In this document: positions 2,769 to 59,819 of the stretch, in pieces | Layout of the letters: every line of letters begins with the position of its first letter | How positions within the stretch are numbered: the stretch's first letter is position 1 | Virus record (IMG/VR): IMGVR_UViG_3300044641_007991 | Coordinates: 10,281-74,280 of that record | DNA: 64,000 nt | Reading direction: 5' to 3' (one strand) | From: a virus | Position numbers and translations under genes: made by a program | The notes under the pieces: model-generated | What the model saw: the letters and a program-made list of their open reading frames with translations, nothing else | Database searches by the model: none | What the model was told of the DNA's origin: nothing

Positions 2769-2854
2769 TATAAATAGACGGTAGTCGCGGATCCCCCGAT
2801 CCCACTACCTCTAAACATTTTTACACTTAATCAAGAGGATTAACAATGTCCAGC
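2769..2854 (+). promoter_or_regulatory. Late promoter plus conserved HEG leader RNA, copy A
   Basis: TATAAATA 2769-2776; GGTAGT-CGC-GGATC-loop-GATCC-C-ACTACC-TCTAAACATT...AATGTCCAGC. Confidence 0.8.
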
Positions 2855-3694
2855 GCAAATATTTATATTATCACAGAACAACAGCGTTTAAATTTTAAAC
2901 CAACATATCTTTATATCAAACAACATTCAGTTACTGGATTAAAATATTTCGGAAAAACGATTAAATCTGATCCAATAAAATATAAAGGATCTGGTATTAG
3001 GTGGTCAAAACATATAAAAAAACACGGAACTAAATTTGTTACCACTTTATGGTATAAATTATATACAGATATAGATGAATTATTATCCGTTGCTATAACT
3101 CTATCTGAAATTTATGATATCGTGGATTCTGATTTTTGGGCGAATATTGTGCCAGAAAATGGGTTAACTGGCGGAGATTCTGAAACTGTTAGAAGGCAAC
3201 AAAAAGAGAAAGTTGCAGAAGGAACCCATAATTTTTTAGGTGGGGAGATTGGGGGGAGTTTTTCAAGAGAACGAGTTTTAAATGGAACCCATAATTTTTT
3301 AGGTCCAGAATCAAATAGAAAGCGAATAGCTGATGGAACACATCCATTTTTAAATTCCGATTTTCAAAGAAATGTTCAATTAAAATTATTATCTGAAGGG
3401 ACTCATATATTCCTTAATCCAGAATTTCGAGAAAATCAATCTAATAGAGTTAAAGAAATGAATGCAACAAACGTCTCTAATGGTACGCACCCTTTTTTAG
3501 GACCGGAGTTGAATAAAAAACGAATAGCTGATGGGACACATCCTTTACTCACTTTATCCAAACAAAGATCTAATAGAAAAATATATCTTGACATAAAAGA
3601 ATTAGCTAAAACATTAAAGATTAAATTACCACCTGGGCTAAATATGAAATCTGATGAATTTTTATTGAAATTTAAAGACAAATATTTGACTTAA
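2846..3694 (+). CDS. Free-standing GIY-YIG-type (Seg-like) homing endonuclease
   Basis: PTYLYIKQHSVTGLKYFGKT..YKGSG..W..HIKKHG; C-terminal GTH(N/P)FL repeats. Confidence 0.8.
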   Translation: MSSANIYIITEQQRLNFKPTYLYIKQHSVTGLKYFGKTIKSDPIKYKGSGIRWSKHIKKHGTKFVTTLWYKLYTDIDELLSVAITLSEIYDIVDSDFWANIVPENGLTGGDSETVRRQQKEKVAEGTHNFLGGEIGGSFSRERVLNGTHNFLGPESNRKRIADGTHPFLNSDFQRNVQLKLLSEGTHIFLNPEFRENQSNRVKEMNATNVSNGTHPFLGPELNKKRIADGTHPLLTLSKQRSNRKIYLDIKELAKTLKIKLPPGLNMKSDEFLLKFKDKYLT

Positions 3695-3695
3695 T

Positions 3696-4754
3696 ATGCA
3701 ATTTTGTGTATTTGTATTTTTAACATTTATATCAGTGAATGTTTTATCTGATATAGGGAAAATCGAATACCAAACAGGATTAGCTGAAATTAATAGGAAT
3801 AATAGATCCTATGCAACTAAAGAGCAATTTCCAGTAGAATCTAAAGATTCTATTATTACAGCTAATTCTAAACTTAATATTAAATTTGAAGATAATACAC
3901 GAGTTGCTGTGTCTGAACAAAGTAAACTTATTATTGATGATTTTATATACGACCCTAAAAAAACAGCAGGGAAATTAGCTTTAAAGTTTGCTTTAGGAAC
4001 TGTTAGATATACTTCAGGACAAATTGCTAAACATAATCCTCAAACAGTATCTATTAATACGCCGACTTCCGTAATTTCAATTCGGGGCACTGATTTTAGC
4101 GCCACTGTTGATGAATTAGGTAAAAGTACAATTATTTTATTACCCAGTTGTGATATTACTGGTTGTGTTACAGGTGCTATTGAAGTTTCTACTGATGCAG
4201 GGTTTGTTTTAATGAACCAAGCATTCCAGACAACAGTTGTATCAGATAAAAATTCTGCTCCAACAAAACCTGTTATCATATCAATCGATGCAGCTAATAT
4301 AGATAATACATTAATTGTATCTCCTCCTGTAAAATCTACAGATAATTCAACAAAAGTAGAACAAATAAAAACTGATTTAGATATTAATTTTCTTGATCAA
4401 GATTTTTTATCATACAAACAATTAGATTTAAATGTTTTAGATTTAAGCAGCGAATTAGATAAAAATTATCTTGAGGTTGCTTTAATGGAAGATATGTTGA
4501 ACGCTACTAATCAAGTCGGCAGCGATTTATTAGCTGTTGGGGTAATGTTGCCTGGATATAATGAGGCTAGTAATTTAAAATATTATATTAATTCTATTGA
4601 ACAATTAGTATTAAACAAATCATCAAAACACCAATTTGAATTAAAAATTGATAAAAATTCAGATGCAACATTAAATTTAAATCAAGAAGGTGTTCCATTA
4701 TCTCAAAGAATTAATATGGGTGTTGCAACAAAAATTACTATTATTCAAAAATAA
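3696..4754 (+). CDS. FecR-domain periplasmic protein
   Basis: Signal peptide; DSIIT..IKFEDNTRVAVSEQSKLIIDDFIYD..GTVRYTSG..TPTSVISIRGTDF. Confidence 0.8.
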   Translation: MQFCVFVFLTFISVNVLSDIGKIEYQTGLAEINRNNRSYATKEQFPVESKDSIITANSKLNIKFEDNTRVAVSEQSKLIIDDFIYDPKKTAGKLALKFALGTVRYTSGQIAKHNPQTVSINTPTSVISIRGTDFSATVDELGKSTIILLPSCDITGCVTGAIEVSTDAGFVLMNQAFQTTVVSDKNSAPTKPVIISIDAANIDNTLIVSPPVKSTDNSTKVEQIKTDLDINFLDQDFLSYKQLDLNVLDLSSELDKNYLEVALMEDMLNATNQVGSDLLAVGVMLPGYNEASNLKYYINSIEQLVLNKSSKHQFELKIDKNSDATLNLNQEGVPLSQRINMGVATKITIIQK

Positions 4755-4785
4755 ATAGTTTTTTTAAATATAACGTGAGGTAATC

Positions 4786-5499
4786 ATGAAAAAACTTGTT
4801 TTAGCACTATGTTTAGCGTTTTCTACTGCTGTATTTGCAGGAACTATTAACGAACAATGTCCGCAATTAACTGTAAACGGAACTCCACAATATGAATCTC
4901 AGCAAGGCGATCAAGAAATTTGTCATGCAAATTATGCAGTAATTCATAGATGCGGAGTAAAGGCTCCAGTTGCAGTATTTGAACATTTAACCAAAGAAGA
5001 TATTACTGGTCCAGCTAAACGAAAAGATAATTTTCACCCTGATTCTGATGTTTCCCCGCAATGTTCAGCTACTTTAGCCGATTATGCTACTGTTGGTAAA
5101 ACTCATGATAGAGGACATTTATCTCCAGCTGGAAACAATACTCAAAGTGCTGATATTATGAGCGAAAGTTTTGATTTGAGTAACATGGTAGCTCAGGTAG
5201 CAAACAATAATCGTGGGATCTGGAAACAATTAGAAACTAAAGAACGCGAAATGATTTCAACTGCAGGAACAGATTATTATATTATTTCTGGTGGCATTTT
5301 TGATCCTGGATACTCTGTAACTGGTAATGGTTTGGGTATTCCAACTAGATTGTATAAAATAATTGTCGAGAAAAATAATAAATCCGTGCAAGCATATTTA
5401 ATGCCAAATGCTGCGTTACCTGTGACAGATTTACCGAAATATCAAGTGTCGCTAGAAGAAGTTGAGCAAGCAACGCAAATGAAATTTAATTTAAAATGA
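4786..5499 (+). CDS. Secreted DNA/RNA non-specific endonuclease (NucA family)
   Basis: Signal peptide; DRGHLSPA, SFDLSNMVAQ..NNRGIWKQLE, IPTRLYKI. Confidence 0.9.
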   Translation: MKKLVLALCLAFSTAVFAGTINEQCPQLTVNGTPQYESQQGDQEICHANYAVIHRCGVKAPVAVFEHLTKEDITGPAKRKDNFHPDSDVSPQCSATLADYATVGKTHDRGHLSPAGNNTQSADIMSESFDLSNMVAQVANNNRGIWKQLETKEREMISTAGTDYYIISGGIFDPGYSVTGNGLGIPTRLYKIIVEKNNKSVQAYLMPNAALPVTDLPKYQVSLEEVEQATQMKFNLK

Positions 5500-7244
5500 G
5501 AAAAGTTTTATTATCTCCATGGTTTTCGTTGGTAACTCTAGCATTAGTAATAGTGCTACGGGTTGCTGACCCTAGTTTCATAGAATCGATTCGACTTCGA
5601 TATTTCGACACAATTATAACAAGTCAGCAAGTTAAACCTTCTGAACAAATTCGTGTTGTTAATATTGATGATGAAACGATCAAACGCTATGGTCAATTCC
5701 CATTTCCGCGTGACAAATATGCTGAGATAATCCAGACATTATTTGACCATCAAGCTGGATTAGTTGTTTTTAACGTATTCATGCCAGAATCTGATAGGTT
5801 TGGAAAGGACAATGAACTCAAAAAAATTATTGACACCTATCCAGTTATCTTACCTGAAGTTGGGGTTAATGATTCTACTGCTAGTGTTGCCCCTAAAATT
5901 GGCGTATCCGAAATCGGTGAATCTGCCAGACCTTGGGCGCCACAGTACAAGGGAATACAATCTAACATCCCAGAATATCAGGGTGCAGCAGGCATTGGAG
6001 TCGTTAATACCCTCCCAGAAATTGATGGAGTCACCAGAAGAATACCCATGGTTGTATCAGCCACAGATACTCTCTACCCGTCCATCTCGATGGAAACGCT
6101 TAGAGTTGCAGCTGGAGACCCTAGCTTTCAAATTAAGTCTAATGAATCGGGGATCGAAGCAGTTAGAATCCCTCAGTTTGGAAAAATTGATACTGATGAA
6201 TTTGGAAGAATCTGGATCGATTGGTCGAACATACCGATGGAATATTCCTTCAATAGATTACCCGATAGTTTTGATGGTGGAATTGTTATTGTCGGGCTTA
6301 CTGGACGAGGACTCAATAATCCTGTCGCAACAGCTAGAGGGAACGTCTATCCGCATCAACTTCAATCTACGGTATTAGATACAATTTTAAAAGGTACTAA
6401 TATTTCTAGACCAGATTGGGCAACAGTTGTTGAATTATTATCAACATTATTATTGAGTATTGTTTCTATATTATTAGTGCGGTGGAAATATGGATTTATT
6501 CCTGTTATTACAGCTATTACCTCTATACATTTTGGTGTTAGTTATATTTTTAACAATTATCATTACCTTTTGGACGCTACGATTCCTGTTCTGGGCATTT
6601 TTCTGGTGTATGCTCATAGTTTCACTGTTAAATTTATTACTGAACTAAACGCTAAATTGCAAATTAAACGACAATTTGGAACTTATTTAAGTCCTGCATT
6701 GGTAGAAAAGTTGCAAAAAAATCCTGAGTTGTTAACTCTTGGTGGAGAATCTAGAGAATTGACAATTTATTTTTCTGATATTAGGTCATTTACAACGCTG
6801 TCTGAGCATTATAAAACTGATCCCATGGGGTTAACCAATTTAATAACCCGATATATGGATAAAATGTTACCTATTATAATGAAAAATGAAGGTACTGTTG
6901 GAAAACTTATTGGTGATGCTATTATGGCATGGTGGGGTGCTCCATTAGATGTAGAAAATCACGCATCAATGGCTATTAAAACTGCAAAAGAAATGGAAAT
7001 AGCATTAGCAGAATTAAATGAAGAATTAATATCTGAAGGTAAACCTCCATTACATGTTGGTGCTGGTATTAGTACTGGAACTGTATTTGTTGGTAATATG
7101 GGATCTTCTGAAAGATTTAGTTATGATATATTAGGGGATGAGGTTAATCTTGCAGCAAGATTAGAAGGACAAACTAAAGGATACGGAGTATCTTTAATAT
7201 TGAGTGAAAACGCATTAAATAGATTAAAGTTTGAAAATGTATAA
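5496..7244 (+). CDS. CHASE2-domain class III adenylate/guanylate cyclase, N-terminal fragment
   Basis: VVNIDDETI..YGQFPFPR (CHASE2), TM helices, FSDIRSFT, KLIGDAIMAWWGAP, GDEVNLAARLEG. Stops before the VKGK motif. Confidence 0.9.
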   Translation: MRKVLLSPWFSLVTLALVIVLRVADPSFIESIRLRYFDTIITSQQVKPSEQIRVVNIDDETIKRYGQFPFPRDKYAEIIQTLFDHQAGLVVFNVFMPESDRFGKDNELKKIIDTYPVILPEVGVNDSTASVAPKIGVSEIGESARPWAPQYKGIQSNIPEYQGAAGIGVVNTLPEIDGVTRRIPMVVSATDTLYPSISMETLRVAAGDPSFQIKSNESGIEAVRIPQFGKIDTDEFGRIWIDWSNIPMEYSFNRLPDSFDGGIVIVGLTGRGLNNPVATARGNVYPHQLQSTVLDTILKGTNISRPDWATVVELLSTLLLSIVSILLVRWKYGFIPVITAITSIHFGVSYIFNNYHYLLDATIPVLGIFLVYAHSFTVKFITELNAKLQIKRQFGTYLSPALVEKLQKNPELLTLGGESRELTIYFSDIRSFTTLSEHYKTDPMGLTNLITRYMDKMLPIIMKNEGTVGKLIGDAIMAWWGAPLDVENHASMAIKTAKEMEIALAELNEELISEGKPPLHVGAGISTGTVFVGNMGSSERFSYDILGDEVNLAARLEGQTKGYGVSLILSENALNRLKFENV

Positions 7245-7328
7245 ATAATGTGTAGATCGCGATACTACTAATATCCATCTACTCTAAACATATTCTTAAC
7301 ACTATTACGAGGAACAGTTATGTCCAGC
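7240..7328 (+). promoter_or_regulatory. Late promoter plus conserved HEG leader RNA, copy B
   Basis: TATAAATA 7240-7247 (contains the cyclase stop codon); GTAGAT-CGC-GATA-loop-TATC-C-ATCTAC-TCTAAACATA...TATGTCCAGC. Confidence 0.8.
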
Positions 7329-8231
7329 GAAAATATTTATACACATACAATATCAGAATCACAACGATTAGAATTTAAACCTACTTGGTTATACATTAAA
7401 TATCACCCAGTAACAGGCTTATCTTATTTTGGTAAGACGATTAAAAATCCATACAAATATAAAGGATCTGGTCCATATTGGAAAAACCATATAAAAAAGT
7501 ATAATAGTAAATTTGTAGAAACTTTATGGTGTCATTTATTTGTGAATATTGATGAATTGGTTGAATATGCTTTATGGTTTTCTAGTGTGAACGATATTGT
7601 AGAATCCACATTATGGGCTAATATGGTATTTGAAGATGGATTAGGTGGAAGAGGAGTAAGTGGTGCCGGTAATGGTATGTACAATAAACAGCACACAGAA
7701 GAAACGAAAAAATTAATTTCTGAAATAAAAACAGCTAATCCGGTAAAACTGTTTGCAGAAGATAATCCACGATTTGGGAAACCTGGAACATTTAAAAATA
7801 AAACCCACACTAAAGAATCTAAATTGAAAATTTCAAATTCTAAAAAGAATAAAACTTATGAAGAAATTTATGGCTCGGTTGAAAAAGCTCAAATAATGAG
7901 AGAAAAACGATCAACCGAATCTAAAAATAGATCTGTATCTGAAATTACTAGAAAAAAATTAAGTTTAGCCAATATAGGAAAGACTAGAACTGAACAACAA
8001 AGATTAAATAATTCAAAAGCTCAAAAAGGATTACAAGCAGGATCCAATAACCCAAGAGCTTTAAAAATTAAAGCGATATCTCCAGAAGGCGAAATATTCC
8101 ATATTCATGGAGAATTTAGAATATTTTGCGAATCTAAATCATTATCTCAATCAATAGCAGGAAAAATATTGAAACATAACCATAAACCAAAATCCGGTAA
8201 TTGTATTGGGTGGAGTTTTTCTTATGAATGA
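7320..8231 (+). CDS. GIY-YIG-type homing endonuclease with NUMOD3-like repeats
   Basis: PTWLYIKYHPVTGLSYFGKT..YKGSG; HTEETKKLIS and HTKESKLKIS repeats. Confidence 0.8.
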   Translation: MSSENIYTHTISESQRLEFKPTWLYIKYHPVTGLSYFGKTIKNPYKYKGSGPYWKNHIKKYNSKFVETLWCHLFVNIDELVEYALWFSSVNDIVESTLWANMVFEDGLGGRGVSGAGNGMYNKQHTEETKKLISEIKTANPVKLFAEDNPRFGKPGTFKNKTHTKESKLKISNSKKNKTYEEIYGSVEKAQIMREKRSTESKNRSVSEITRKKLSLANIGKTRTEQQRLNNSKAQKGLQAGSNNPRALKIKAISPEGEIFHIHGEFRIFCESKSLSQSIAGKILKHNHKPKSGNCIGWSFSYE

Positions 8232-8490
8232 TTTTGTTGAACTCGATACAGTAGCAGTCAAGGGAAAAAAAGAAGGGATTAAGATTTTCACGGTAGCAAA
8301 TCCACCACCAGAACATCAATTATATCTAGAAGCATATTATGCTGGGGATTGGAAATCTGCTGCGATTATTTGTAAACATTTATCCGAACAACCAGGAGAT
8401 CTTCAACATTATTATGAATTAATGTTAGAACGTATTTCTGGAGAATGTCCAGATAACTGGACTGGTACATATCACGCAACTTCCAAATGA
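8224..8490 (+). CDS. C-terminal fragment of the CHASE2 cyclase
   Basis: MNDFVELDTVAVKGKKEGIKIFTV...AYYAGDW...W.G.Y.ATSK is the usual tail of these cyclases. Own GGAG RBS at 8212-8215. Confidence 0.8.
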   Translation: MNDFVELDTVAVKGKKEGIKIFTVANPPPEHQLYLEAYYAGDWKSAAIICKHLSEQPGDLQHYYELMLERISGECPDNWTGTYHATSK

Positions 8491-8519
8491 AAAAAGGGAG
8501 CCGAAGCTCCCTTTATCTT

Positions 8520-8520
<1 letters not shown>
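8490..8520. terminator. Bidirectional intrinsic terminator
   Basis: AAAAAAGGGAGC-CGAA-GCTCCCTTT between convergent genes (UUCG loop on the - strand). Confidence 0.85.
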
Positions 8521-10151
<1,631 letters not shown>

Positions 10152-10183
10152 TTATTGTGTAAATATAATTATTTAAATCTATA

Positions 10184-10519
10184 TTAACATCCATTGTTGT
10201 TATCTGAATCCATATCTCGTTCGACGATAGGACTGATTACTTGTTGATAAGTTTCCTCAAAGATGTCTGGCTTACATGCATAGAATTCTCCTTGGACACC
10301 ACGAATAATATAATCACCTTCAGATGCAATATGATACGAATCACTTCTGTCTTCTAGAGTTTTGATTTCTAACCAAGCTTCATTCTCATCAGTATCGTAC
10401 ATTCCAGCATCACGATAAGCATCACCAAGCCAGTTTTTCAAAAATAATAAACATTCTGATGTATATTCAAATACAACAGCTTCAATTACAACTGGTCGTT
10501 TTTTGTATTTTTTAATCAT
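10184..10519 (-). CDS. Conserved phage protein (KKRPVVIEAV...IKTLE...GDYIIRGVQGEFYACKPDIFEETY family)
   Basis: Recognisable phage motif; start set at MIKKYKK. Confidence 0.75.
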   Translation of the reverse strand: MIKKYKKRPVVIEAVVFEYTSECLLFLKNWLGDAYRDAGMYDTDENEAWLEIKTLEDRSDSYHIASEGDYIIRGVQGEFYACKPDIFEETYQQVISPIVERDMDSDNNNGC

Positions 10520-10754
10520 CTTCGCCGTAGATTGCAATAATATGCTCTGATTTAATTACATACAAATCATTTTTAATTTTCTTAGCTTCATTCCAATCAA
10601 TCATGATTGTATCTTCCAATTTTAAATCTTCAACCCACCCGCCAAATCCTAAGACTTTGGCTTTAATTGCATCATCACTCTCAACTCCTTGAATAAGACC
10701 TTGATACTCATCTTTTTGTTTCTTAACGATAACATAATCATTTAATACTTGCAT
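10512..10754 (-). CDS. groES: GroES-like co-chaperonin (short, divergent)
   Basis: MQVLNDYVIVKK..KAKVLGFG..LKLEDTIM..IKSEHIIAI pattern, close to groEL. Confidence 0.7.
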   Translation of the reverse strand: MQVLNDYVIVKKQKDEYQGLIQGVESDDAIKAKVLGFGGWVEDLKLEDTIMIDWNEAKKIKNDLYVIKSEHIIAIYGEDD

Positions 10755-10782
10755 AAGTTTCCTCTTTTAGTTAAAACAATAC

Positions 10783-10989
10783 TTATATTGCTGTTGATGG
10801 GATTAATTTTGGAATAGTTAATTCCGGTTTTTGTTCTGGTTGAACAAATTCTGGTTGTGGTTTTGGATGCGCTGCTTTAAATGCCGCAACTAATTGCTCA
10901 TTAATCTGAGCGGCAAATATGAATAATAGAACAAATACGATAGGAAAAAATACGATTTTTAATAATGTTTCTATATGTTTCATGATCAC
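10783..10989 (-). CDS. Small membrane protein
   Basis: One hydrophobic helix and a Pro-rich tail. Confidence 0.6.
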   Translation of the reverse strand: MIMKHIETLLKIVFFPIVFVLLFIFAAQINEQLVAAFKAAHPKPQPEFVQPEQKPELTIPKLIPSTAI

Positions 10990-11009
10990 CTAATGAATTA
11001 TAAATGTAA

Positions 11010-11357
11010 GAAAACGGTTTATTCTGTTTCGAGGAAAACCGCAAAAACCCAACTATAATTTTAAGCTGCTAGAGCAGTAGAATTATAGAAAGCGTCGTTT
11101 TTAGCTTCGCCATTTACTTATTTTATGCTGATTACGTCAGTCATCTCTCGATTCTCCAGTGTTCTTTGATCTCAACGTCGAATCTGTTCACCCCCATCAG
11201 AAACACACTTAAACTGGTCCGGCAGAATTTTTTCATTCCAGTTCGTTTATGTGACCGTCGTCACTACTTAGCTGCGGCAAAAGTATGTTTCTGGTGGAGG
11301 TGGGGGAATAATGCTATCCCCGTCCGCCAAAACTATTATAACACCTTCAACGAATAC
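11010..11357 (-). ncRNA. ssrA: tmRNA, circularly permuted (two-piece)
   Basis: Acceptor piece ends ...CACCTCCACCA at 11292, upstream of the coding piece starting GGGGGTGAACAGATTCGAC at 11195. Acceptor stem has G3.U70. Tag ORF 11111-11061 = GEAKNDAFYNSTALAA*. Outer ends are approximate. Confidence 0.9.
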
Positions 11358-11615
11358 TTTAAAATCACACTGCATAAGGACATAACGGACTCAAACCGAG
11401 TTCTTTGATACTATCTTACCTTATCGAACCTGAACACCTAGTGTGATTTTAAAAAGAGCAATACATTTAACAGAAAGAGTGAGTCGTACCAATCTGCCAC
11501 CCAACAGAAACGTCAATATAACGGCATTGTCACTTTATCTAATAGACAGGGATATTTCCGGTTATATCATACGTCCCGTTCTCGCGATGCCCGAGGGTAA
11601 ATGTATTAAATTTAT

Positions 11616-12197
11616 TTATTCTGGATATAAAAGTTGCAGTGCATCTAGTACAATGTCATCCAGAGGATTGTGTTTTATCACAACATTTCTATCCCATGTT
11701 CCTGGATATTTACTTGCATCAATATCACAATATCCGCGTTTTGGATTTGTAGCAACTAAATCTACATAAGTTCGCATATCACGATAATTGCTGTATCGCA
11801 CTAATAAATCAACACCAACAGCTTTACACAAACTATCAATAGATATTTGATCAAGACCACCTCTAGTCCAGATTAATGTATTCTCTGGATCACAATGTTG
11901 ATTGATATAATTTCGCAGGATTTCAATTCCGTGTTTAGCTGGAAGATCGTCTTTCTTAGGAAAGAAACTCTGTTGTTTTACAAGATCACATTGTTTATTC
12001 CACCAAGCAATTGTATCTTTATCAACAGTTCTACCATAATTTTCAATTTGATCTTTTACTGAAAATTTTACAAACAGCGCATCAGAATATAATGATTCCC
12101 AGGTATTTGGTTTTGTGATATCGATATAAACAATAGCTGCAGATAAAATAACAGTTGTAGATTCAACACCCATGGTTTCTACGTCAAAAATTAACAC
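11616..12197 (-). CDS. DEDD 3'-5' exonuclease (T4 DexA-like)
   Basis: IFDVETMG, TIAWWNKQ, IWTRG, RDMRT, HNPLDDIVLD. Confidence 0.85.
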   Translation of the reverse strand: MLIFDVETMGVESTTVILSAAIVYIDITKPNTWESLYSDALFVKFSVKDQIENYGRTVDKDTIAWWNKQCDLVKQQSFFPKKDDLPAKHGIEILRNYINQHCDPENTLIWTRGGLDQISIDSLCKAVGVDLLVRYSNYRDMRTYVDLVATNPKRGYCDIDASKYPGTWDRNVVIKHNPLDDIVLDALQLLYPE

Positions 12198-12349
12198 ATA
12201 TCACCTCACTAATTAAAATACTATTGTACTATAAATTTTCCTGGGAGTCAAGCACTTTTTTCTGTTTTAACAGTGCAACGTACTCTTTTCGTTGCGCATC
12301 CGTTAATTTATCTTGATCAGCCAATTTTTTTAAGTATTCAAAACGATAT

Positions 12350-12583
12350 TCATTCATTGGATCTGTTTAAATTAGCAGCAGTATCCATTAGATTTTGTTT
12401 TTTCATTTTAACATTATCTTGAATTAAATTGTCTATTAAAGCTTTACTGAGCATAATCAATTCTTCTTGTTGGTCAGCAGTAATCTTACCTGTTTGTTTT
12501 AATGTTTGTAGAGTTTTATATCTAGCATAAACTCGTTTTAATTTTGGATTAATATAATTTGATTTCATGTTATTGCCTGACAA
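12350..12583 (-). CDS. Hypothetical protein
   Basis: ORF in a tightly packed - strand operon. Confidence 0.55.
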   Translation of the reverse strand: MSGNNMKSNYINPKLKRVYARYKTLQTLKQTGKITADQQEELIMLSKALIDNLIQDNVKMKKQNLMDTAANLNRSNE

Positions 12584-12815
12584 CTAATCTAATATAATAT
12601 TTAGACGGATATTTTTGGATATCAATCGGCAATCCGTATCTATCCCAGTGTACGGGCATTAATGTAAATTTATCTTTTAAGTTAATTCTAATTAACCCAG
12701 TAATAGTTTCTCCTCGTAAACCCATGAAAATAAATTTATGGTTGCCGCCACATGCGATTGCAAGATCGTTAGAAAATTTAACATCAGATTGTAGCTCTTT
12801 TATTAAGTCTAGCAT
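12570..12815 (-). CDS. Hypothetical protein
   Basis: Start at MLDLIKE with GGAG RBS. Confidence 0.55.
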   Translation of the reverse strand: MLDLIKELQSDVKFSNDLAIACGGNHKFIFMGLRGETITGLIRINLKDKFTLMPVHWDRYGLPIDIQKYPSKYYIRLVVRQ

Positions 12816-13206
12816 TTTTAATGCTCTCCGGTTGTTTGATGTCAACAATAATAGAATCATCATCAACTAATTGCTGGAACAAATATTTTCTATCTTCTTT
12901 ATAGATTAAATTTAATTTGGTAGCAATTTCTGTGGCTAATTTCCATTTACGGAAATATCCAGGTTCATCTGTTAATAAGATATTATAGACACCATATCTA
13001 AATGATACCATATCATCATCTGGATAACTATCGCCGCATTTATTATCTAATTGGTGCTGTTGTTCAAATTGCTCAATGTCATCTACTAATAACATAATAT
13101 CAATATCATTGTGTTCTTGAGATGGACAAATATATTTTGAACCTGTTAATAATACAGCATTAGATGCTGCCATTAATTTACATACATATTCAGGAAAATC
13201 GCTCAT
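12784..13206 (-). CDS. Minimal nucleotidyltransferase-like protein
   Basis: LLTGSKY...DIDIMLLV (GS..DxD motif). Confidence 0.6.
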   Translation of the reverse strand: MSDFPEYVCKLMAASNAVLLTGSKYICPSQEHNDIDIMLLVDDIEQFEQQHQLDNKCGDSYPDDDMVSFRYGVYNILLTDEPGYFRKWKLATEIATKLNLIYKEDRKYLFQQLVDDDSIIVDIKQPESIKNARLNKRATI

Positions 13207-13655
13207 CGTTGCCACTCCACAATTGTATAATCAACCATACCTTCTAAATTATTTTTAATAATATCTCGAATAATGTTCCAGTCACCACCTGCTAAACCAG
13301 CACCAATTAATGGTAACCCAATTTTTTTACCTTTAAAATCCGTAGCAATTAATCGCATAGAATCATTGATTGCTTGATAATTTTGCTTTAGGTCATTATA
13401 TCCAGGCATGTATTGAGTGTACGCATTTACAATTGTTAAACCCTTATCCATATAGGTATGTGCGCTATATGAACCCAATTTTGTTATATCACCCTGTTCT
13501 GTTGATTTGTCTGACAAATACGCTTCTGGATATCTATTCCTAATTTGTAGAGCAATCCCTGCGCCCATAGCGCAAAAACAATTACAACCATGAACGATAA
13601 CATCGAACTCGCCAGCATCAAATAAATCTAATAAATCACCTTTAATAATTTTCAT
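13203..13655 (-). CDS. Macro domain (ADP-ribose binding/hydrolase) protein
   Basis: IIKGDLL, IVHGCNCFCAMGAGIA, IVNAYTQ, LPLIGAGLAGGDW. Confidence 0.9.
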   Translation of the reverse strand: MKIIKGDLLDLFDAGEFDVIVHGCNCFCAMGAGIALQIRNRYPEAYLSDKSTEQGDITKLGSYSAHTYMDKGLTIVNAYTQYMPGYNDLKQNYQAINDSMRLIATDFKGKKIGLPLIGAGLAGGDWNIIRDIIKNNLEGMVDYTIVEWQR

Positions 13656-14602: not shown

Positions 14603-14634
14603 AATAAATTTCCAATTTAAAGCTGTATATTGAT

Positions 14635-14743
14635 AATAAATAGTTGACCGTTTAAATGAATATTAAACGATGCTTATCGCGGAATAGCAGTTCCCATAAG
14701 CACTAATCATCAACTATCAAATATAGGAATCGATATGACCAGC
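14635..14743 (+). promoter_or_regulatory. Late-promoter variant plus conserved HEG leader RNA, copy C
   Basis: AATAAATA 14635-14642; GCTTAT-CGC-GGAA-loop-TTCC-C-ATAAGC-ACTAATCAT...ATGACCAGC. Confidence 0.75.
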
Positions 14744-15823
14744 AATAATATTTATACTATTACCGAACAACAACGATTAAATTTTAAACCGACTTATTTA
14801 ATGATTAAACAACATTCAATAACAGGTAAAAAATATTTTTGTAAAACTGTAACATCCAACCCTTTAAAATATTCTGGGTCAGGGGATTATTGGTTAAAAC
14901 ATATAAAAAAGCACGGAGTTCAATTTGTCGAGACAATATGGTATAAATTGTATACTGATATAGACGAATTAGTAAACTATGCTTTACAATTTTCTATCGA
15001 AAATGATATTATTAAATCTAAACTCTGGGCGAATAAAATGTTAGAAAACGGGTTATCTGGCGGGTTATCTAAAGATTTGTTATCAGAACAGACCATATTA
15101 AATATGGTTAATGCTCAATTAAATAGATCCCCAGAAGCTAAATTTATCTCTAAAACAAAATATAAAAATACTATACAGAATAGATCAGAGTTTAAAAAAT
15201 TAGAACTATCTAATAAAATTAGAAAAACAAAATTAGCTATGACTTCTGAACAAAAAGCAGAACAAAAACGTAAAGAATACGAAACAAAAGCAAATAGATC
15301 CCCTGAACAAAAAGCAGAACAAAAACGTAAACAAAGCGAGTCTTATTTAAAGACATTTAATTCTAAATCTGATGACAGTAAACGCGAACAATATACAAAA
15401 AGAGCAAAAACAATGTCACTAAAATCTGAAGAAGAATTAGCTTCTATCTACGCAAAAATAAGTCGCCCAGGTAAATTAAATCCTATGTACGGTAAACCTC
15501 GCCCAGATTTAATTGAAAATAATAAAAATCCTATAAAACGACAAAAACAAATACAAACGCGCAAAAAATTAGATCTTGAGAGAAAATTACGTAGATTTAA
15601 AATTGAAACTGAGATTAAATTTTACGAGAAAATATTAGAATTATCTTCAATCCACTCAACGTACACTAAATCCGGAAAAATAAATTTTAATACATTAGCT
15701 AAATATTTTCCTGAGTATAATGGTTCAACTCAAGCAACAACAGCAGCTCTGCGTAGATTTTATGAATATTACACATCAACTAAAATAATATCGGATGACG
15801 ATAATTCATCTACTCTAATATAG
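14735..15823 (+). CDS. GIY-YIG-type homing endonuclease between the two ligase halves, opposite strand
   Basis: PTYLMIKQHSITGKKYFCKT..YSGSG.YW..HIKKHG; N-terminus nearly the same as the HEG at 2846. Confidence 0.8.
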   Translation: MTSNNIYTITEQQRLNFKPTYLMIKQHSITGKKYFCKTVTSNPLKYSGSGDYWLKHIKKHGVQFVETIWYKLYTDIDELVNYALQFSIENDIIKSKLWANKMLENGLSGGLSKDLLSEQTILNMVNAQLNRSPEAKFISKTKYKNTIQNRSEFKKLELSNKIRKTKLAMTSEQKAEQKRKEYETKANRSPEQKAEQKRKQSESYLKTFNSKSDDSKREQYTKRAKTMSLKSEEELASIYAKISRPGKLNPMYGKPRPDLIENNKNPIKRQKQIQTRKKLDLERKLRRFKIETEIKFYEKILELSSIHSTYTKSGKINFNTLAKYFPEYNGSTQATTAALRRFYEYYTSTKIISDDDNSSTLI

Positions 15824-16539: not shown

Positions 16540-16570
16540 AATTTTTTCCGTAGTATACAGTTATTGTACT

Positions 16571-17596: not shown

Positions 17597-17667
17597 AACA
17601 AACTCCATAAAAAAGGGTATAGAGTTATTTTACTCTATACCCCTGTAGAAGTCAAGCACTTGTTAAA

Positions 17668-18518: not shown

Positions 18519-18887
18519 AAACAATAATTTAATGTTAAAACTACTATTTATTTTATTGTAATACAAAATGATATGCGATTGAAACAATAACAATTAATGC
18601 TGCGGCTAAAATAGAGCCAATAAACAGTCCATCGATAAATCGTTTTATTTTATCCATTTACAGGTTTTGAACCAAAAAGTTGATGTAACTTATATTTAGC
18701 ATCAAGCCCTTCTTGTTGAGATTTAACGGGGATATAAATCTCACAACCATTACCGATTTGCACATATTGTACACGTTCTGCTTGTGAAAATAAACAAGGA
18801 TTAATACCAATATCTTCTAATTTCATAGAGTCTCCAGGATTTGTTGTAATTAGTTACCAAAAGTGTTTACATATTCACCCGTTTTAG

Positions 18888-19070: not shown

Positions 19071-19072
19071 AT

Positions 19073-22034: not shown

Positions 22035-22120
22035 TATAAATATATTATGCTAGTCGCGGTGCTACCAACACCCACTAGCTCTAAACATTTTCATTCAGAT
22101 AAGGATTACCTATGTTCAGC
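22035..22120 (+). promoter_or_regulatory. Late promoter plus conserved HEG leader RNA, copy D
   Basis: TATAAATA 22035-22042; GCTAGT-CGC-GGTG-loop-CACC-C-ACTAGC-TCTAAACAT...ATGTTCAGC. Confidence 0.8.
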
Positions 22121-23092
22121 ACAGATATTTATACCATACTATCATCAAAACCTCATAATCAACATTATTTAAAACGATACGTTAAATTCATAGAATATTG
22201 TAACAATATTAATGCGCATTATACTGGTTATGTAGAATATCATCACATATTACCAAAAGCTAAGACGCTATTCCCTGAATATAAAAATTTTAAACAAAAC
22301 CCCTGGAATAAAATAAAACTAACTCCAAGGCAACACTTTATAGCTCATTGGATGTTGTGGAAAATATTCGGCGGTTTTATGGCTTACGCATTTTCTATAA
22401 TGCGTAGAAAATCTAAAGTTCAATCAGAAAGATATTTTCGATTAAATAGCAAATCGTATGGAGAATTGAAAATAGCAGTTAGCAAATCTCAATCAACCAG
22501 AATCATATCAAAAAAAACGATAGAGAAAATGAAAAAATCTCAAAAAAATAAACCTAAAATTCGATGCCCTCATTGCGATAAAATCGGGGATGAATCTAAC
22601 ATGAGAAGGTGGCATTTCGATAATTGTAAAGTTTTTACTGATAAATCTGTACACGAAGTAAAACAAAAATCTGATATTGTAACTTGCCCTCATTGTGGAA
22701 AAACCGGAAAAGAACAAGGTATGTTGGCTAACCATTTCTCAAATTGTAGTGTTATTAGAGGAGATTACCGAAAAGTAAAAGATAAGATAACATGTCCACA
22801 TTGTAAAAAAGAAGGCGCGAACACATATGGGTTTAAGGTTTATCATTTCGATAATTGTAAAATTTTAACGGGAAAGATTATACGCGCAGTAGAATATGAT
22901 TTATCTATAGTTAAGTGTCCGCATTGCGATAAAGAAGGGACAATGCACGGAATGAAATCAAGTCATTTCGAACACTGTCCTACACTCAAACCAGAATTAC
23001 CGAAAATACAATGCCCGCACTGCAAAAAAGAAGGTAATAACAACGGCTATTTTAAATCTCATCATTTTGATAAGTGTAAACAAAAAATTTAA
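22112..23092 (+). CDS. HNH homing endonuclease with five CPHC zinc-ribbon repeats
   Basis: YVEYHHILPK..NKIKLTPRQHFIAHWML; five CPHC.K.G...HF..C units. Confidence 0.85.
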   Translation: MFSTDIYTILSSKPHNQHYLKRYVKFIEYCNNINAHYTGYVEYHHILPKAKTLFPEYKNFKQNPWNKIKLTPRQHFIAHWMLWKIFGGFMAYAFSIMRRKSKVQSERYFRLNSKSYGELKIAVSKSQSTRIISKKTIEKMKKSQKNKPKIRCPHCDKIGDESNMRRWHFDNCKVFTDKSVHEVKQKSDIVTCPHCGKTGKEQGMLANHFSNCSVIRGDYRKVKDKITCPHCKKEGANTYGFKVYHFDNCKILTGKIIRAVEYDLSIVKCPHCDKEGTMHGMKSSHFEHCPTLKPELPKIQCPHCKKEGNNNGYFKSHHFDKCKQKI

Positions 23093-25024: not shown

Positions 25025-25125
25025 TATAAATAAAGTATAGATTAAAAATGTCTATACAACACAAAAAAAGCCAATCGCGATACTGGTAATATCCATTGGC
25101 ACTAATACTAATCAGGAGTATCAGC
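25025..25125 (+). promoter_or_regulatory. Late promoter plus conserved HEG leader RNA, copy E
   Basis: TATAAATA 25025-25032; GCCAAT-CGC-GATA-loop-TATC-C-ATTGGC-ACTAATACT-AATCAGG-AGTATCAGC-ATG. Confidence 0.8.
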
Positions 25126-26346
25126 ATGAATATTTATTACGTTTACGTTTATCGCCATCCAACAACAAATATACCATTTTATGTCGGCATGGGTAAAAAA
25201 GATAGATATCTTTCGCATTTAAAAGAAGCAATTAAGCATCCAACCCCAGTCCGCAGTCAAGGAAAATTAAATACTATCAGAAAAATTATTCGAGAAGGTT
25301 CACAACCAGTTATACAGTTAATAGACACAAAATTATCAAAAGAGGATGCTATTGAACTAGAAATATTTTTGATAGAATTGATAGGAAGAAAAGATTTAAA
25401 AAACGGGTCACTTACCAATCTAACGTCTGGCGGAGACGGGTATTCTGGGTGGTCTGACTTCCACCGAGAAGAACAATCTAATAGAATGAAAACTACAATA
25501 GCAGTAAAAAATCCAGTTACCGGAGAAAAATTTCGTGTTTCTGATAATGATCCTAGATGGTTGTCCGGAGAACTTGTTGGACAAAACCTTGGAGAATGTA
25601 ATAGTAACATAAATGGTAAATTAGACGGTTATATACAAGCAAAAGATAAAAACGGTAATATTTTTAGAATAAAACCGACCGATCCTAGATGGTTGTCCGG
25701 AGAACTTGTTGGGATTAATAAAAATAGACCTGCACATGAAAACACTAAAATAGCTGCAAGTAAAACACATAAAGGTGTACCAAAATCAAAAGAACATAAT
25801 AAAAAAGTGTCTGAATCAACTAAAGGTTCAATATGGATCCATAACTTTGATACAGGAAAAACATCCAGACTAACGAAAATTAATCCAAATATACCAAACG
25901 GGTTTGTAATTGTTTGTGGGCCACATAAATTATTAACTTTAGAACAACGAGAAGAAGAACGTATAACAGTTAAAAATAACAAAAAACAAATACGATCAGA
26001 AACAGCTTTGTTAAGAAAGCAAAATAATTCTCTCGCCCAAAAACAATTTAGAAAAGATAATCCATTTTTCGGGTTAACAGAAAAACAAATCCAATTTTCA
26101 ATTGAAATAGTAGAATTATTTTCTACAAAACCTACAGTCCCATTAATAGGTAGAAGAGGAAACGGAATACGTCAACTCTCGTATATTAGAGCATTTTCCT
26201 TATTTGTATCAAAACAATATAATGTTACACTACATACAATACATTCTATTGTAAATGGAAAAAAGCCTAATTTAATTCACGAAATTATTAAAATTCGCCC
26301 AGATTTATCAGATATTTGTCAAGAAATATTGCAAAATTGCCACTAG
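25126..26346 (+). CDS. GIY-YIG-like homing endonuclease (different subfamily)
   Basis: YYVYVYRHP..PFYVGMGKKDRY..H..ELEIFLIELIGRKD..G.LTNLTSGGDG; duplicated DPRWLSGELVG. ATG at 25126 with AGGAG RBS. Confidence 0.8.
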   Translation: MNIYYVYVYRHPTTNIPFYVGMGKKDRYLSHLKEAIKHPTPVRSQGKLNTIRKIIREGSQPVIQLIDTKLSKEDAIELEIFLIELIGRKDLKNGSLTNLTSGGDGYSGWSDFHREEQSNRMKTTIAVKNPVTGEKFRVSDNDPRWLSGELVGQNLGECNSNINGKLDGYIQAKDKNGNIFRIKPTDPRWLSGELVGINKNRPAHENTKIAASKTHKGVPKSKEHNKKVSESTKGSIWIHNFDTGKTSRLTKINPNIPNGFVIVCGPHKLLTLEQREEERITVKNNKKQIRSETALLRKQNNSLAQKQFRKDNPFFGLTEKQIQFSIEIVELFSTKPTVPLIGRRGNGIRQLSYIRAFSLFVSKQYNVTLHTIHSIVNGKKPNLIHEIIKIRPDLSDICQEILQNCH

Positions 26347-58789: not shown

Positions 58790-59021
58790 GTTATTCACCG
58801 CCAGTTGCAGCCATGTGAACCCAGTATTCGGCTTCATCGGTAGCAGCTGTTCGTAGTTCGCAGACCCAATCCTCAAATTCGCTTAGAGTCATACGACCAT
58901 CACGGACTGCTTCAAATACATCAGAGCTGAACATTATTTCCATTTTTATCTCCTAATCAAATATAGATTCATAGAACAGAGTTCATTATACAGTTAACAG
59001 TGAGCCAAGTCAAGCACTTTT

Positions 59022-59297
59022 TTAATAATATTCTCTGCGAGTATCATCGGTGTCTAGGAAACGTGTTTCAAACGGTAACACAGCGCCAGCAGCGTCTACT
59101 CTAACACCTGGAAGTTGAGCGTCACACACCACTTCATTTTGGTTAAGGTATCTGAACCCATCATAGGCGCCAGCCTCAAATAACACTGTTTCTAATGCGA
59201 AACACATTCCACGTCTAACATCTGGGGCGCAGGTGCTGTGTTTCAGTGATGAGTTGATTTGGGATTTGAAAGCTTCGATATCAAATGTTTTTCTCAT
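59022..59297 (-). CDS. Conserved phage protein (R.GM..LE.VL..AG.Y.GFRYL..DDTRR.Y)
   Basis: Motif and RBS. Confidence 0.75.
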   Translation of the reverse strand: MRKTFDIEAFKSQINSSLKHSTCAPDVRRGMCFALETVLFEAGAYDGFRYLNQNEVVCDAQLPGVRVDAAGAVLPFETRFLDTDDTRREYY

Positions 59298-59405
59298 AAT
59301 ATTCTCTCCAGAAATTAGTTAAGAACCAGTTCCTCAACCTATGATTCAATTTTACTAAAAAGCAGGAGAGAAGTCAAGCACTTTTCACACAGTTATCTAA
59401 AAATT

Positions 59406-59591
59406 TTATCGTTCTGGAAAGAACTCAGCACCACCCACCATATTACCGTTAGAGTCACGCAACCCATAATTTAAGGTGTCTGGGGAGGCTGCGATTTTAT
59501 CAGCTAATTCCCGCAGGATTTTAGCCACCTCAGCTGCGCGGTTATCTTCAAAAGCTGTGTTGTCACATTCAATTTCTGCTACAAATAACAT
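59406..59591 (-). CDS. Conserved phage protein (DN.AF..EVA.ILR.LA..LRD.NGN.VG)
   Basis: Motif and RBS. Confidence 0.75.
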   Translation of the reverse strand: MLFVAEIECDNTAFEDNRAAEVAKILRELADKIAASPDTLNYGLRDSNGNMVGGAEFFPER

Positions 59592-59709
59592 AATAAACTC
59601 CAGGATAAAAAATAATATTGTTAGTAAAAACGGGATTAGAAAATTATCTCCAGAAAACTAATCCCATTTAATAGAGCACACGCCCATATTCAATTGCAAA
59701 ACTTAAAAT

Positions 59710-59819
59710 TATAAATACTGTTTGTCTTAGCATAAAAAATGCCATTCGCGATATGTCCAGTATCCAATGGCTCTAGACATTCTATCAATTAAAACTTACG
59801 AGGATTAACTATGTCCAGC
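59710..59819 (+). promoter_or_regulatory. Late promoter plus conserved HEG leader RNA, copy F
   Basis: TATAAATA 59710-59717; GCCATT-CGC-GATAT-loop-GTATC-C-AATGGC-TCTAGACAT...ATGTCCAGC. Confidence 0.8.

Follow-up and report, generated by a model that had tools for sequence, protein, structure and literature searches.

Six homing endonuclease (HEG) genes of a T4-like lake phage were found to be headed by one portable cassette of about 100 bases. The cassette probably consists of two facing late promoters and encodes, opposite the HEG, a cis-antisense RNA of about 65-90 nt that covers the ribosome site and start codon of the nuclease gene. In silico, it is the antisense strand that suits the conserved fold; the inner promoter box is conserved as nucleotides, and the geometry of the cassette is fixed.

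Copies and distribution of the cassette

The initial annotation had described six covarying RNA leaders in front of HEGs in the window, the 64,000-nt stretch of DNA that was analysed, and all six (A to F; Table 1) were recovered where it had placed them. A covariance model (R1), comprising the hairpin and CTAAACAT, was built as had been proposed and run against the entire 74,280-base contig. It gave eight matches of 48-58 bits, while the runner-up scored 12 bits. The two further copies, the seventh and eighth, are close to the window but outside it (G000:C1 9999, + strand, and 5912, - strand). The whole window was searched with Rfam 15, both with the gathering threshold and with E<=10, and none of the six cassette sites was matched. 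The sole Rfam 15 match in the window was a tmRNA at 11013-11403.

At least 95 distinct copies were present on contigs of uncultured T4-like phages, each 5' of a HEG from one of many families. The association with HEGs of different families, GIY-YIG types as well as the Mob-type HNH enzyme of copy D, was as first reported. Cassette C separates the halves of a DNA ligase gene of the split-intein type, which is encoded on the - strand; the adjacent ORF (13652-14602) contains Intein_splicing and DNA ligase domains, and the start codon of the ligase C-half is at 14602.

Table 1. Positions of cassettes, HEGs and predicted antisense RNAs in the window.
Feature	Position (strand)	Length	Components and remarks
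Cassette A	2769..2867 (+)		sense late box TATAAATA 2769-2776; hairpin 2780-2809; P3 5' strand 2811-2818, then SD; ATG 2846; CAGC 2851-2854; reverse-strand late box (TATTTATA) 2860-2867
Cassette B	7240..7341 (+)		sense box 7240-7247; hairpin 7252-7282; ATG 7320; CAGC 7325-7328; reverse-strand box 7334-7341
Cassette C	14635..14756 (+)		variant sense box AATAAATA 14635-14642; hairpin 14672-14701; ATG 14735; CAGC 14740-14743; reverse-strand box 14749-14756
Cassette D	22035..22133 (+)		sense box 22035-22042; hairpin 22049-22079; ATG 22112; CAGC 22117-22120; reverse-strand box 22126-22133
Cassette E (short type)	25025..25138 (+)		sense box 25025-25032; hairpin 25070-25100; short P3 25102-25124; CAGC 25122-25125; ATG shifted to 25126; reverse-strand box AATAAATA (as TATTTATT) 25131-25138
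Cassette F	59710..59832 (+)		sense box 59710-59717; hairpin 59741-59771; ATG 59811; CAGC 59816-59819; one-off reverse-strand box (TATAAGTA) 59825-59832
HEG A	2846..3694 (+)	282 aa	Seg-like GIY-YIG N-domain, also in B, C and eighth copy
HEG B	7320..8231 (+)	303 aa	NUMOD3 motif
HEG C	14735..15823 (+)	362 aa	
HEG D	22112..23092 (+)	326 aa	Mob-type HNH; phrog_655; 32% identity to T-even homing endonucleases
HEG E	25126..26346 (+)	406 aa	LEM-3-like GIY-YIG domain
HEG F	59811..60752 (+)	313 aa	phrog_10820 / phrog_314
Predicted antisense RNA A	2771..2854 (-)	~84 nt	both ends predicted; 5' end would be G opposite 2854; SL1 = P3, anti-SD in apical loop; SL2 = P1/P2 hairpin; U-rich tail
Predicted antisense RNA B	7243..7328 (-)	~86 nt	
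Predicted antisense RNA C	14663..14743 (-)	~81 nt	if unterminated, would enter ligase C-half gene
Predicted antisense RNA D	22040..22120 (-)	~81 nt	
Predicted antisense RNA E	25061..25125 (-)	~65 nt	would span SD, not AUG; canonical U7 after hairpin
Predicted antisense RNA F	59732..59819 (-)	~88 nt	U6 after hairpin

Layout of the cassette

The six copies share a fold composed of P1 (6 bp), a C, a G:C pair, a second C and the P2 hairpin, followed by one linker base, CTA and then CAGC. Sequence conservation extends past CAGC through HEG codons 4-8. In the sense strand the P1/P2 hairpin is situated 30-40 nt 5' of the Shine-Dalgarno sequence (SD). What had been taken for an invariant CGC/C internal loop is really a G:C pair between two single bulged C. 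Both bulged C are invariant and have no role in the antisense model, while the G:C pair becomes A:U in six other copies. CTA and CAGC had been regarded as unpaired; CTA and the CAG of CAGC make up the base of P3, in which they pair as C:G, U:A and A·C. Nor is CAGC strictly invariant, as the eighth copy has TAGC and further copies have CAGT. The near-constancy of CTA and CAGC, earlier read as a sign of a ligand site, can be attributed to pairing on the antisense strand together with the predicted antisense transcription start.

A late promoter had been placed directly before each copy. The cassettes are indeed tied to late boxes, but the box abuts the hairpin in A, B and D only and is 23-37 nt upstream of it in C, E and F. 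Among 94 cassettes, the sense box was at most 5 nt before P1 in 34 and 8-29 nt upstream in the rest.

Strand preference of the fold

The strand on which the RNA folds was determined with 95 unique cassettes, gathered from pattern scans that applied no pairing criterion. On the HEG strand, the non-Watson-Crick pairs of P1 were A·C in five cases and G·U in none; in P3 the counts were 172 and 0. An A·C on the HEG strand is a G·U on the opposite strand. Standard pairs occupied 99.6% of the 1,793 cells of the antisense alignment, and the claimed covariation was borne out by 330 double-sided changes, compared with 91 in shuffles (0 of 500 shuffles reached that number).

The antisense fold was the more stable one in 95 of 95 copies (-20.6 versus -13.4 kcal/mol for the sense fold), and the inner stem was stabler on the antisense strand in 84 of 95. 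On the mRNA strand P3 contains two near-invariant A·C mismatches among its 8 positions. The mean probability of the central P3 pair was 0.98 for the antisense strand and 0.30 for the mRNA strand, which does not support the earlier view of a folding mRNA leader whose P3 buries the AUG. In the antisense fold the anti-SD was mostly single-stranded within the apical loop (71% unpaired on average), and in the sense fold the SD was not consistently paired, about half of it being unpaired on average.

The P1/P2 hairpin is almost wholly Watson-Crick and should therefore fold equally in the mRNA. At the fourth P2 pair, G·U was as common on the mRNA strand as on the antisense strand (14 versus 8). The outer two P1 pairs were retained in 33 of the 34 cassettes with a sense box within 5 nt of P1; the predicted mRNA start of these 34 falls within P1. 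Judged by its pairing pattern, the alignment shows that the conserved fold belongs to a predicted opposite-strand RNA rather than to the HEG mRNA leader.

The inner promoter box

At +6 to +13 past CAG[C/T] the cassettes contain TA[T/C][T/A]TATA, the reverse complement of TATAAATA. This is a late-promoter box on the reverse strand, at a fixed distance and within HEG codons 5-8. Exact NATAAATA was present in 43 of 93 inner boxes, and most others, which are candidate promoters, were one-off, about half of all boxes being one base away from NATAAATA (TATAAGTA, TATATATA). Twelve amino acids are represented at codon 5 across the copies, yet its third base was T in 88 of 92 copies versus 53 expected (p=1e-16); ATT and TAT were over-used at codons 6 and 7. 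Codon usage indicates that the inner box is conserved as nucleotides, overriding codon choice. Only five reverse-strand TATAAATA boxes occur in the window, and four of these are inner boxes of cassettes. In copy E the AUG is displaced by three codons and the spacing from CAGC to the box is the same. T4 late boxes occupy -13 to -6 (PMC2988020), and the antisense +1 is therefore predicted on the C of CAGC.

Predicted antisense RNA and its possible function

In the proposed mechanism the outer late box would drive the HEG mRNA, and the inner box should start a short antisense RNA on the opposite strand, whose first base would be the G facing the final C of CAGC. The first stem-loop (SL1) would be formed by P3 and the inner stem, which can pair fully on the antisense strand only, and would display the anti-Shine-Dalgarno sequence in its apical loop. 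The second (SL2) would be the P1/P2 hairpin, and the U-rich tract downstream of it probably terminates the transcript at 65-90 nt. Such an RNA would be fully complementary to the HEG 5' UTR and ribosome site and, in the long type, also to the first three codons. Owing to this complementarity it would most likely lower translation or mRNA stability and would probably restrain the nuclease as IS10 RNA-OUT or type I antitoxins restrain their targets. Production of the RNA, its 3' end and repression are what we infer from the sequence. Repression is only one possible effect among others; antisense RNAs may also protect mRNAs, according to PMC3113571.

The 8 nt 5' of P1 are A-rich, which places a U-rich tract 3' of the hairpin on the antisense strand. 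Many copies have a perfect U6-U8 at this position. Where the sense box directly adjoins the hairpin, the tract is interrupted (ACNUAUUUAUA), and the cassette hairpins were not flagged by a simple terminator scan; the 3' end of the predicted RNA is accordingly uncertain. The 5' and 3' arms of the predicted RNAs are nearly identical across the eight copies in one genome, so that the RNAs could cross-regulate one another's HEGs. Quite possibly, aquatic T4-like phages possess a large undescribed family of late cis-antisense small RNAs, one per HEG, in portable two-promoter cassettes that move between nuclease families, and cross-regulation might turn these into a brake that acts on selfish nucleases throughout the genome.

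Among the selfish elements of T4-like phages, homing endonucleases predominate, and mRNA hairpins of a few coliphages have so far been the basis for understanding how they are controlled. The antisense RNA, should it exist, would represent a new control logic in which the brake is carried inside the mobile element and is common to GIY-YIG and HNH nucleases. With at least 95 distinct copies it would be among the largest phage small-RNA families. It would also account for the M-x-S-x-x-I-Y N-terminal peptide of unrelated HEGs, as a promoter read as protein, and for the hairpins of Dassa et al. (2009). Conserved hairpins with TATAAATA before HEGs (Dassa et al., 2009) and the S-PM2 antisense RNA CfrI were known previously.

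Alternative explanations

The fold might instead function in the HEG mRNA leader, with the bulged 5' hairpin binding a protein or ligand and P3 covering the AUG and so controlling translation. Both strands can form the hairpin with Watson-Crick pairs, the mRNA contains it at least in those cassettes that have their sense box 20-40 nt further upstream, and the two invariant bulged C are otherwise unaccounted for. Moreover, hairpins masking the ribosome-binding site are known in T-even HEGs, and similar hairpins are interpreted in this way by Dassa et al. (PMC2677866). We nevertheless consider this unlikely, given the two mismatches and the low pairing probability of the sense P3, the inconsistent pairing of the SD and the fact that every wobble-type exception suits the opposite strand. 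A leader function also gives the nucleotide conservation of codons 5-8 no role, and the ligand-binding, ribozyme or self-cleaving motif initially suggested found no counterpart among the Rfam riboswitch and ribozyme models at E<=10.

Another doubtful explanation is that the cassette provides an opposite-strand neighbour gene with a structured leader and with a late promoter directed outward, the hairpin being at most an attenuator. The upstream gene is on the antisense strand in 34 of 46 classifiable IMG/VR cassettes and at copies C-F, and at C the predicted antisense transcript would meet the ligase C-half start about 60 nt past the hairpin. This orientation bias may, however, just mirror the placement of late-strand HEGs in early-gene regions. 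The upstream gene is co-oriented in four of the eight contig copies (A, B and two outside the window) and in 12 of the 46 classifiable ones, yet the cassette is unchanged there and the transcript would merely be antisense to the 3' end of that gene. A stable hairpin followed by U-rich sequence, a perfect U6-U8 in many copies, also suggests that the RNA stops at this point. It is very improbable that the cassette is mainly a DNA-level recombination module, comparable to PeSL, which lets HEG bodies swap and whose RNA folds are incidental. The same or nearly the same cassette does occur on different HEG families, the leader '...cattccttacaatattcatggagaacattaATG' being found on five N-terminal families, and PeSL cassettes mediate comparable shuffling in T4-type phages, to judge from the titles of PMC2839356 and PMC4122927. 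Homology alone, however, would not yield compensatory changes in three helices (the 330 double changes), and the strand-specific G·U pattern is not expected from it. Shuffling is compatible with an RNA function and probably additional to it.

Comparison with known systems

IS10 RNA-OUT, which acts on RNA-IN, and type I antitoxins are short, stably folded cis-antisense RNAs with bulged stems; transcribed from within the 5' portion of a gene that is selfish or toxic, they can pair with the ribosome site and start codon of that gene. The predicted cassette RNA resembles them as a short stable cis-antisense RNA over the ribosome site and start codon with bulged stems. Like RNA-OUT and CfrI, the cassette has, in silico, an opposite-strand promoter in the 5' part of the target, and its predicted transcript has a stable and conserved fold whose loop could pair with the ribosome site. 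It differs from RNA-OUT and type I RNAs in using a lytic-phage late promoter; its RNA is a prediction, and a sequence relation was not found.

CfrI is an antisense RNA detected experimentally in cyanophage S-PM2 (Millard et al., 2010, as cited in PMC2984593). It is annotated at NC_006820 136544-136741 (-), and the ATG of the free-standing HEG F-CphI is at 136684. Like the predicted cassette RNA, it is an antisense RNA of a T4-like phage that starts in the 5' coding part of a HEG and crosses its start codon and ribosome site. CfrI, however, is about 200-225 nt long and continues into psbA, whereas the cassette RNA is predicted to be 65-90 nt long, with one fold common to the whole family and a late box at either side. 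R1 gave zero matches in S-PM2, S-CRM01, Syn9 and P-SSM2, and neither a TATAAATA box at -13 to -6 of the annotated CfrI 5' end nor the CAGC geometry was present. Membership of the cassette RNA in a CfrI sequence family was rejected.

The late promoter of T-even I-TevI has a hairpin that sequesters the ribosome-binding site, and the late start lies inside this hairpin. A late-promoter hairpin of the same sequestering kind at the HEG mobE of Aeh1 is summarised in PMC2677866. In these phages, as predicted for the cassette, a late promoter and a 5' RNA structure confine HEG expression to late infection. Their hairpin pairs with the ribosome site, whereas the promoter-side hairpin of the cassette contains no ribosome site and its AUG-contacting helix is stable on the opposite strand only. 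A translational mask of this type was rejected because of the P3 probability on the mRNA and the half-unpaired SD. With regard to the embedded late promoter of the T-even type, by which late transcripts lose the masking arm, 34 of 94 cassettes have a predicted start within P1, a helix that leaves the ribosome site unmasked, and the others have the box 8-29 nt upstream.

Dassa et al. (2009; PMC2677866) described 'fractured genes' of metagenomic T4-like phages with free-standing HEGs between the gene halves. At 15 of 16 loci a hairpin preceded the start codon, and ten of these had the late-promoter box TATAAATA and two complementary conserved motifs. Copy C is in just such a split-intein ligase locus, the comparison being one of arrangement. 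The hairpin was taken as a translational mask in the mRNA, and the text mentions neither a promoter for an antisense transcript nor a small RNA, nor does it compare the two strands.

The cassette also shares with PeSL the nature of a short promoter and stem-loop module that is repeated genome-wide and linked to modular shuffling. PeSL cassettes of T4-type phages reportedly consist of an early (sigma-70 type) promoter and a terminator stem-loop between genes, as name and titles indicate. The present cassette has two facing late boxes, takes in the ribosome site as well as codons 1-8, and is HEG-specific. With the features of PeSL taken from name and titles, membership was rejected, as the boxes are of the late type TATAAATA and the HEG start falls within the cassette.

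Downstream nucleases

The ORFs following cassettes A-F were all HEG-like in PHROGs. One N-terminal nuclease domain was common to A, B, C and the eighth copy (52-64% identity). The HEGs of E, F and the seventh copy each differed from this group and from D.

Cassette architecture and copies on the contig

One RNA leader in front of six homing endonuclease (HEG) genes had been reported in the initial annotation, and all six copies (cassettes A to F, at about 2780, 7252, 14672, 22049, 25070 and 59741) were found at the places reported and with the fold described. At each site helix P1 comprised 6 bp, and CGC on the 5' strand and C on the 3' strand separated it from helix P2, which comprised 4-5 bp with a loop of 4-7 nt. 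The hairpin was followed in all six sites by one linker base, CTA, a leader bearing the Shine-Dalgarno (SD) sequence, ATG and CAGC. The bases of the CGC/C internal loop were also as described, but the loop was not fully unpaired; ViennaRNA placed a G:C pair between two bulged C residues, flanked by P1 and P2, in 6/6 sites. An additional small AU-rich hairpin occurred between a distant sense box (the outer late promoter before the HEG) and P1 in cassettes C (stem GTTTAA...TTAAAC) and E (GTATAGA...TCTATAC).

A covariance model of the hairpin and the next 12 bases (R1) was used to search the whole 74,280-base contig with filters off and gave eight matches at 48-58 bits, while the runner-up reached only 12 bits. 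The seventh and eighth copies were located outside the window, which corresponds to contig positions 10281-74280, and a HEG-like ORF was present downstream of 8/8 copies according to PHROGs. The leader indeed heads differing nuclease families on the same contig, an HNH enzyme (D) as well as GIY-YIG types. HEGs A, B, C and that of the eighth copy had a common N-terminal nuclease domain (52-64% identity), HEG D was a Mob-type HNH enzyme with 32% identity to T-even HEGs over the full length, and HEG E carried a LEM-3-like GIY-YIG domain; HEG F and the HEG of the seventh copy were different again from these types. The leader was not a described Rfam family, as none of the six sites gave a match at the gathering threshold or at E<=10.

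Genes around the HEGs

The genes surrounding the HEGs are listed below. HEG C is located on the + strand between two ORFs, an arrangement consistent with a DNA ligase gene divided at a split intein, the free-standing HEG lying between the two parts; Dassa et al. 2009 use the term 'fractured gene' for such loci. The homologues of the cyclase ORF in Pelagibacter phage HTVC008M and Methylophilales phage Melnitz were longer and uninterrupted, and HEG B may have divided the cyclase gene with no intein involved. The genes around HEGs D and E are a NAD/PRPP salvage cluster with nuclease interruptions. ARAGORN reported neither tRNA nor tmRNA in the whole window.

Positions of genes and additional cassette elements (window coordinates unless stated otherwise)
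Feature	Position	Strand	Remarks
Eighth cassette	contig 5912	-	outside window
Seventh cassette	contig 9999	+	outside window
CHASE2 + class III cyclase ORF	5496-7244	+	ends at cassette B sense box; cyclase domain truncated (profile positions 7-156 of 183)
94-aa ORF after HEG B	8206-8490	+	
Circularly permuted two-piece tmRNA gene	11013-11403	-	Rfam tmRNA_permuted 85.5 bits, alpha_tmRNA 65.2 bits
Left ORF at HEG C	13652-14602	-	weak C-terminal intein splicing match (residues 5-38), then DNA ligase adenylation + OB domains
AU-rich hairpin, cassette C	14644-14671		
Right ORF at HEG C	15769-16539	-	no Pfam match
Nicotinamide phosphoribosyltransferase	20014-21717	-	flanks HEGs D, E
Ribose-phosphate pyrophosphokinase-like gene	23089-23931	-	flanks HEGs D, E
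RNA ligase	23934-25013	-	flanks HEGs D, E
AU-rich hairpin, cassette E	25033-25069		

The cassette family in IMG/VR

A search pattern with 14 fixed bases was dominated by chance matches in IMG/VR, R1 finding a true copy in about 22 of 80 loci; two 16-base patterns were more effective. The cassettes used for statistics were collected by three pattern scans followed by a scan on fixed bases only, without a pairing rule, and comprised at least 95 distinct cassettes in at least 88 loci. Although no pairing was demanded, at least five of the six P1 pairs were Watson-Crick in all 95 cassettes.

In PHROGs, the 85 complete distinct downstream ORFs matched numerous HEG families, of which phrog_314 (40 ORFs), phrog_655 (32), phrog_12434 (14) and phrog_3339 (11) were the largest, besides several smaller ones, and NUMOD3, DUF7487, SegE_GIY-YIG, GIY-YIG and HNH were found as Pfam domains. 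Almost the same leader, base for base, preceded HEGs of five N-terminal families, which means that the cassette is mobile as a unit.

Predicted folding of the antisense strand

The P1 pairs of the 95 cassettes, read on the HEG strand, were Watson-Crick in 565 cases and A·C in 5, without any G·U. In P3, the helix from CTA to CAGC, A·C was seen in 88 copies at position 3 (A:U in the other 7), in 73 at position 4 (22 Watson-Crick) and in 11 at position 5 (83 Watson-Crick, 1 other); G·U was absent from all three positions on this strand. An A·C mismatch on one strand corresponds to a G·U pair on the opposite strand. When the cassettes were aligned in antisense orientation, opposite to the HEG (alignment A4), standard pairs filled 99.6% of 1,793 cells, while slid controls paired to only 31-46%. 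The proposed covariation of the stems was borne out by 330 double-sided changes in A4 as compared to 91 in shuffles, and 0/500 shuffles attained 330.

The antisense RNA was predicted to be more stable than the sense RNA in 95/95 cassettes, with mean folding energies of -20.6 and -13.4 kcal/mol, respectively. The antisense strand formed the central P3 pair with a probability of 0.98, the sense strand with 0.30; the view of the initial annotation that the mRNA leader is the folding RNA was not supported. In 84/95 copies greater stability in antisense was also predicted for the inner stem, located between CAU and AUG, and the anti-Shine-Dalgarno bases were mostly located in its apical loop. Where the sense box lay within 5 nt of P1, the predicted mRNA start fell inside P1, and both outer P1 pairs were nevertheless kept in 33 of 34 such cassettes, an indication that selection acts on an RNA other than the late mRNA.

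Instead of G:C, the pair that separates the bulges was A:U in six other copies and, in a single copy, A·C, which is G·U in antisense. The two bulged bases were invariant, C on the mRNA strand and G on the antisense strand. Bulges in antisense stems such as that of CopA accelerate target pairing and confer resistance to RNase III; such a role would require no fixed bases. An outer helix UAUAAAUA/UAUUUAUA in a read-through mRNA was considered and dropped because the sense box is 8-29 nt away from the hairpin in one third of the cassettes. For the P2 loop, no signal of kissing with the leader or RBS, or of a repeat shared with them, was obtained against permuted pairs (z 0.8, 1.4 and 0.1).

Predicted inner promoter and antisense start

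Conservation continued downstream of the leader as ATG NNC AGC nnn AAT ATT TAT A, and TATTTATA in these codons is the reverse complement of TATAAATA. The occurrence of TATAAATA on the reverse strand of the N-I-Y codons (the inner box, HEG codons 5-8) was considered as a side effect of peptide conservation, and this explanation was overturned by box, codon and window-count tests. The consensus at +6 to +13 after CAG[C/T] was T A T/C T/A T A T A, and the reverse complement of the inner box read TATAAATA in 29 and NATAAATA in 43 of 93 copies, most others differing by one base. Codon 5 specified 12 different amino acids, yet its third base was T in 88/92 copies, while 53 were expected from the coding of these amino acids at other places in the ORFs (p=1.4e-16). 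ATT (against ATA) and TAT (against TAC) were favoured far more than the ORFs' own codon usage would predict.

Six exact TATAAATA boxes were present on the + strand of the 64-kb window, five being cassette sense boxes, and five on the - strand, four being inner boxes. The exact box was thus rarer than predicted from composition (about 9 per strand), and 9/11 occurrences were in HEG cassettes. Ordinary late genes of this phage must either use variant boxes, or exact TATAAATA is avoided elsewhere.

Late boxes of T4 extend from -13 to -6 and are followed by AT-rich sequence (PMC2988020), so that +1 of the antisense RNA is predicted at the final base of CAGC. This RNA would start with G-CUG, and CUG would pair with UAG (C:G, U:A and G·U). 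In cassette E the AUG was three codons further downstream, while the positions of CAGC, the 5-nt spacer and the inner box were unchanged; this geometry does not serve the reading frame.

3' end of the predicted antisense RNA

The eight HEG-strand bases before P1 were A-rich, with at least 5/8 A in 62/94 copies and runs of 5-8 A in 39 of 94, so the hairpin is followed by U-rich sequence on the antisense strand. Copies E and F had a clean U6-U7 tract; in cassettes with the sense box directly next to the hairpin, the antisense tail is ACNUAUUUAUA, a weaker terminator. The cassette hairpins were missed by a simple terminator scan of window positions 1-20000, an outcome of little weight because the scan pattern appears not to allow bulged stems. 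From the sequence, a length of 65-90 nt is predicted for the antisense RNA, with a deduced 3' end.

Proposed function and alternatives

The observations of the initial annotation thus stood and were extended, while its mechanism was supported only in part. The best reading of the sequences is a two-promoter cassette encoding a cis-antisense RNA. P3 would be the 5' stem-loop of this RNA with CTA and CAG at the base of the stem, the C that ends CAGC would be the complement of the antisense start, and P1/P2 would form its 3' hairpin; being Watson-Crick paired, P1/P2 forms a 5' hairpin in the mRNA too. The N-terminal peptide M-x-S-x-x-I-Y, present even on the HNH enzyme, would then largely be promoter and helix read as protein, and its position 2 was S, T, F, P, I or L, as the helix requires.

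Repression of the HEG is our best guess for the effect of the putative antisense RNA, which could also protect the mRNA, or the facing promoters could interfere with each other in transcription. A real rival is donation of the inner promoter and leader to the neighbouring gene upstream of the cassette, because this neighbour lay on the antisense strand in 34/46 classifiable cassettes and in copies C-F, and because a read-through antisense transcript of copy C would enter the C-terminal half of the split-intein DNA ligase. However, the upstream neighbour was co-oriented with the HEG in 4/8 copies of the contig.

Known systems and related sequences

Hairpins were described by Dassa et al. 2009 (PMC2677866) in 15/16 5' UTRs of gene-splitting HEGs from marine and lake metagenomes, ten with a TATAAATA box and two with complementary conserved motifs, and were interpreted as Aeh1-type translational masks. 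Judged by locus arrangement, the present cassette is probably the same element, since copy C is likewise located in a fractured gene. A full-text search for literature joining antisense RNA, homing endonuclease and late promoter yielded only papers on CfrI of S-PM2, a detected antisense RNA which starts within HEG F-CphI and crosses the F-CphI start. Unlike the present cassettes, the CfrI locus is without late box, cassette geometry and hairpin.

Neither megablast with a 4-kb stretch nor blastn with cassette A revealed a real match among 50,697 phage records, and R1 did not match HTVC008M, Melnitz, S-PM2, S-CRM01, Syn9 or P-SSM2. HTVC008M and Melnitz were the closest named relatives, with about 37% protein identity (cyclase ORF). 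Near-identical DNA was present in 18 lake or freshwater metagenome DNA runs, with no RNA run listed as containing the stretch, and the source is an uncultured freshwater T4-like myophage. Two wastewater runs labelled 'RNA?' (one data set, filed twice) contained low-depth contigs of a related strain, which carry no strand or end information; one covers window positions 2448-2885, while the bodies of HEGs A and B were not covered, a gap to which no meaning is attached. Five IMG/VR loci (L039:2889-2928, L080:4356-4397, L167, L102 and L123) contained orphan cassettes with intact hairpin and CTA, without ATG/CAGC or HEG, which look like remnants after HEG loss; one hairpin in a HEG-less locus was also noted by Dassa et al. 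2009 (PMC2677866).
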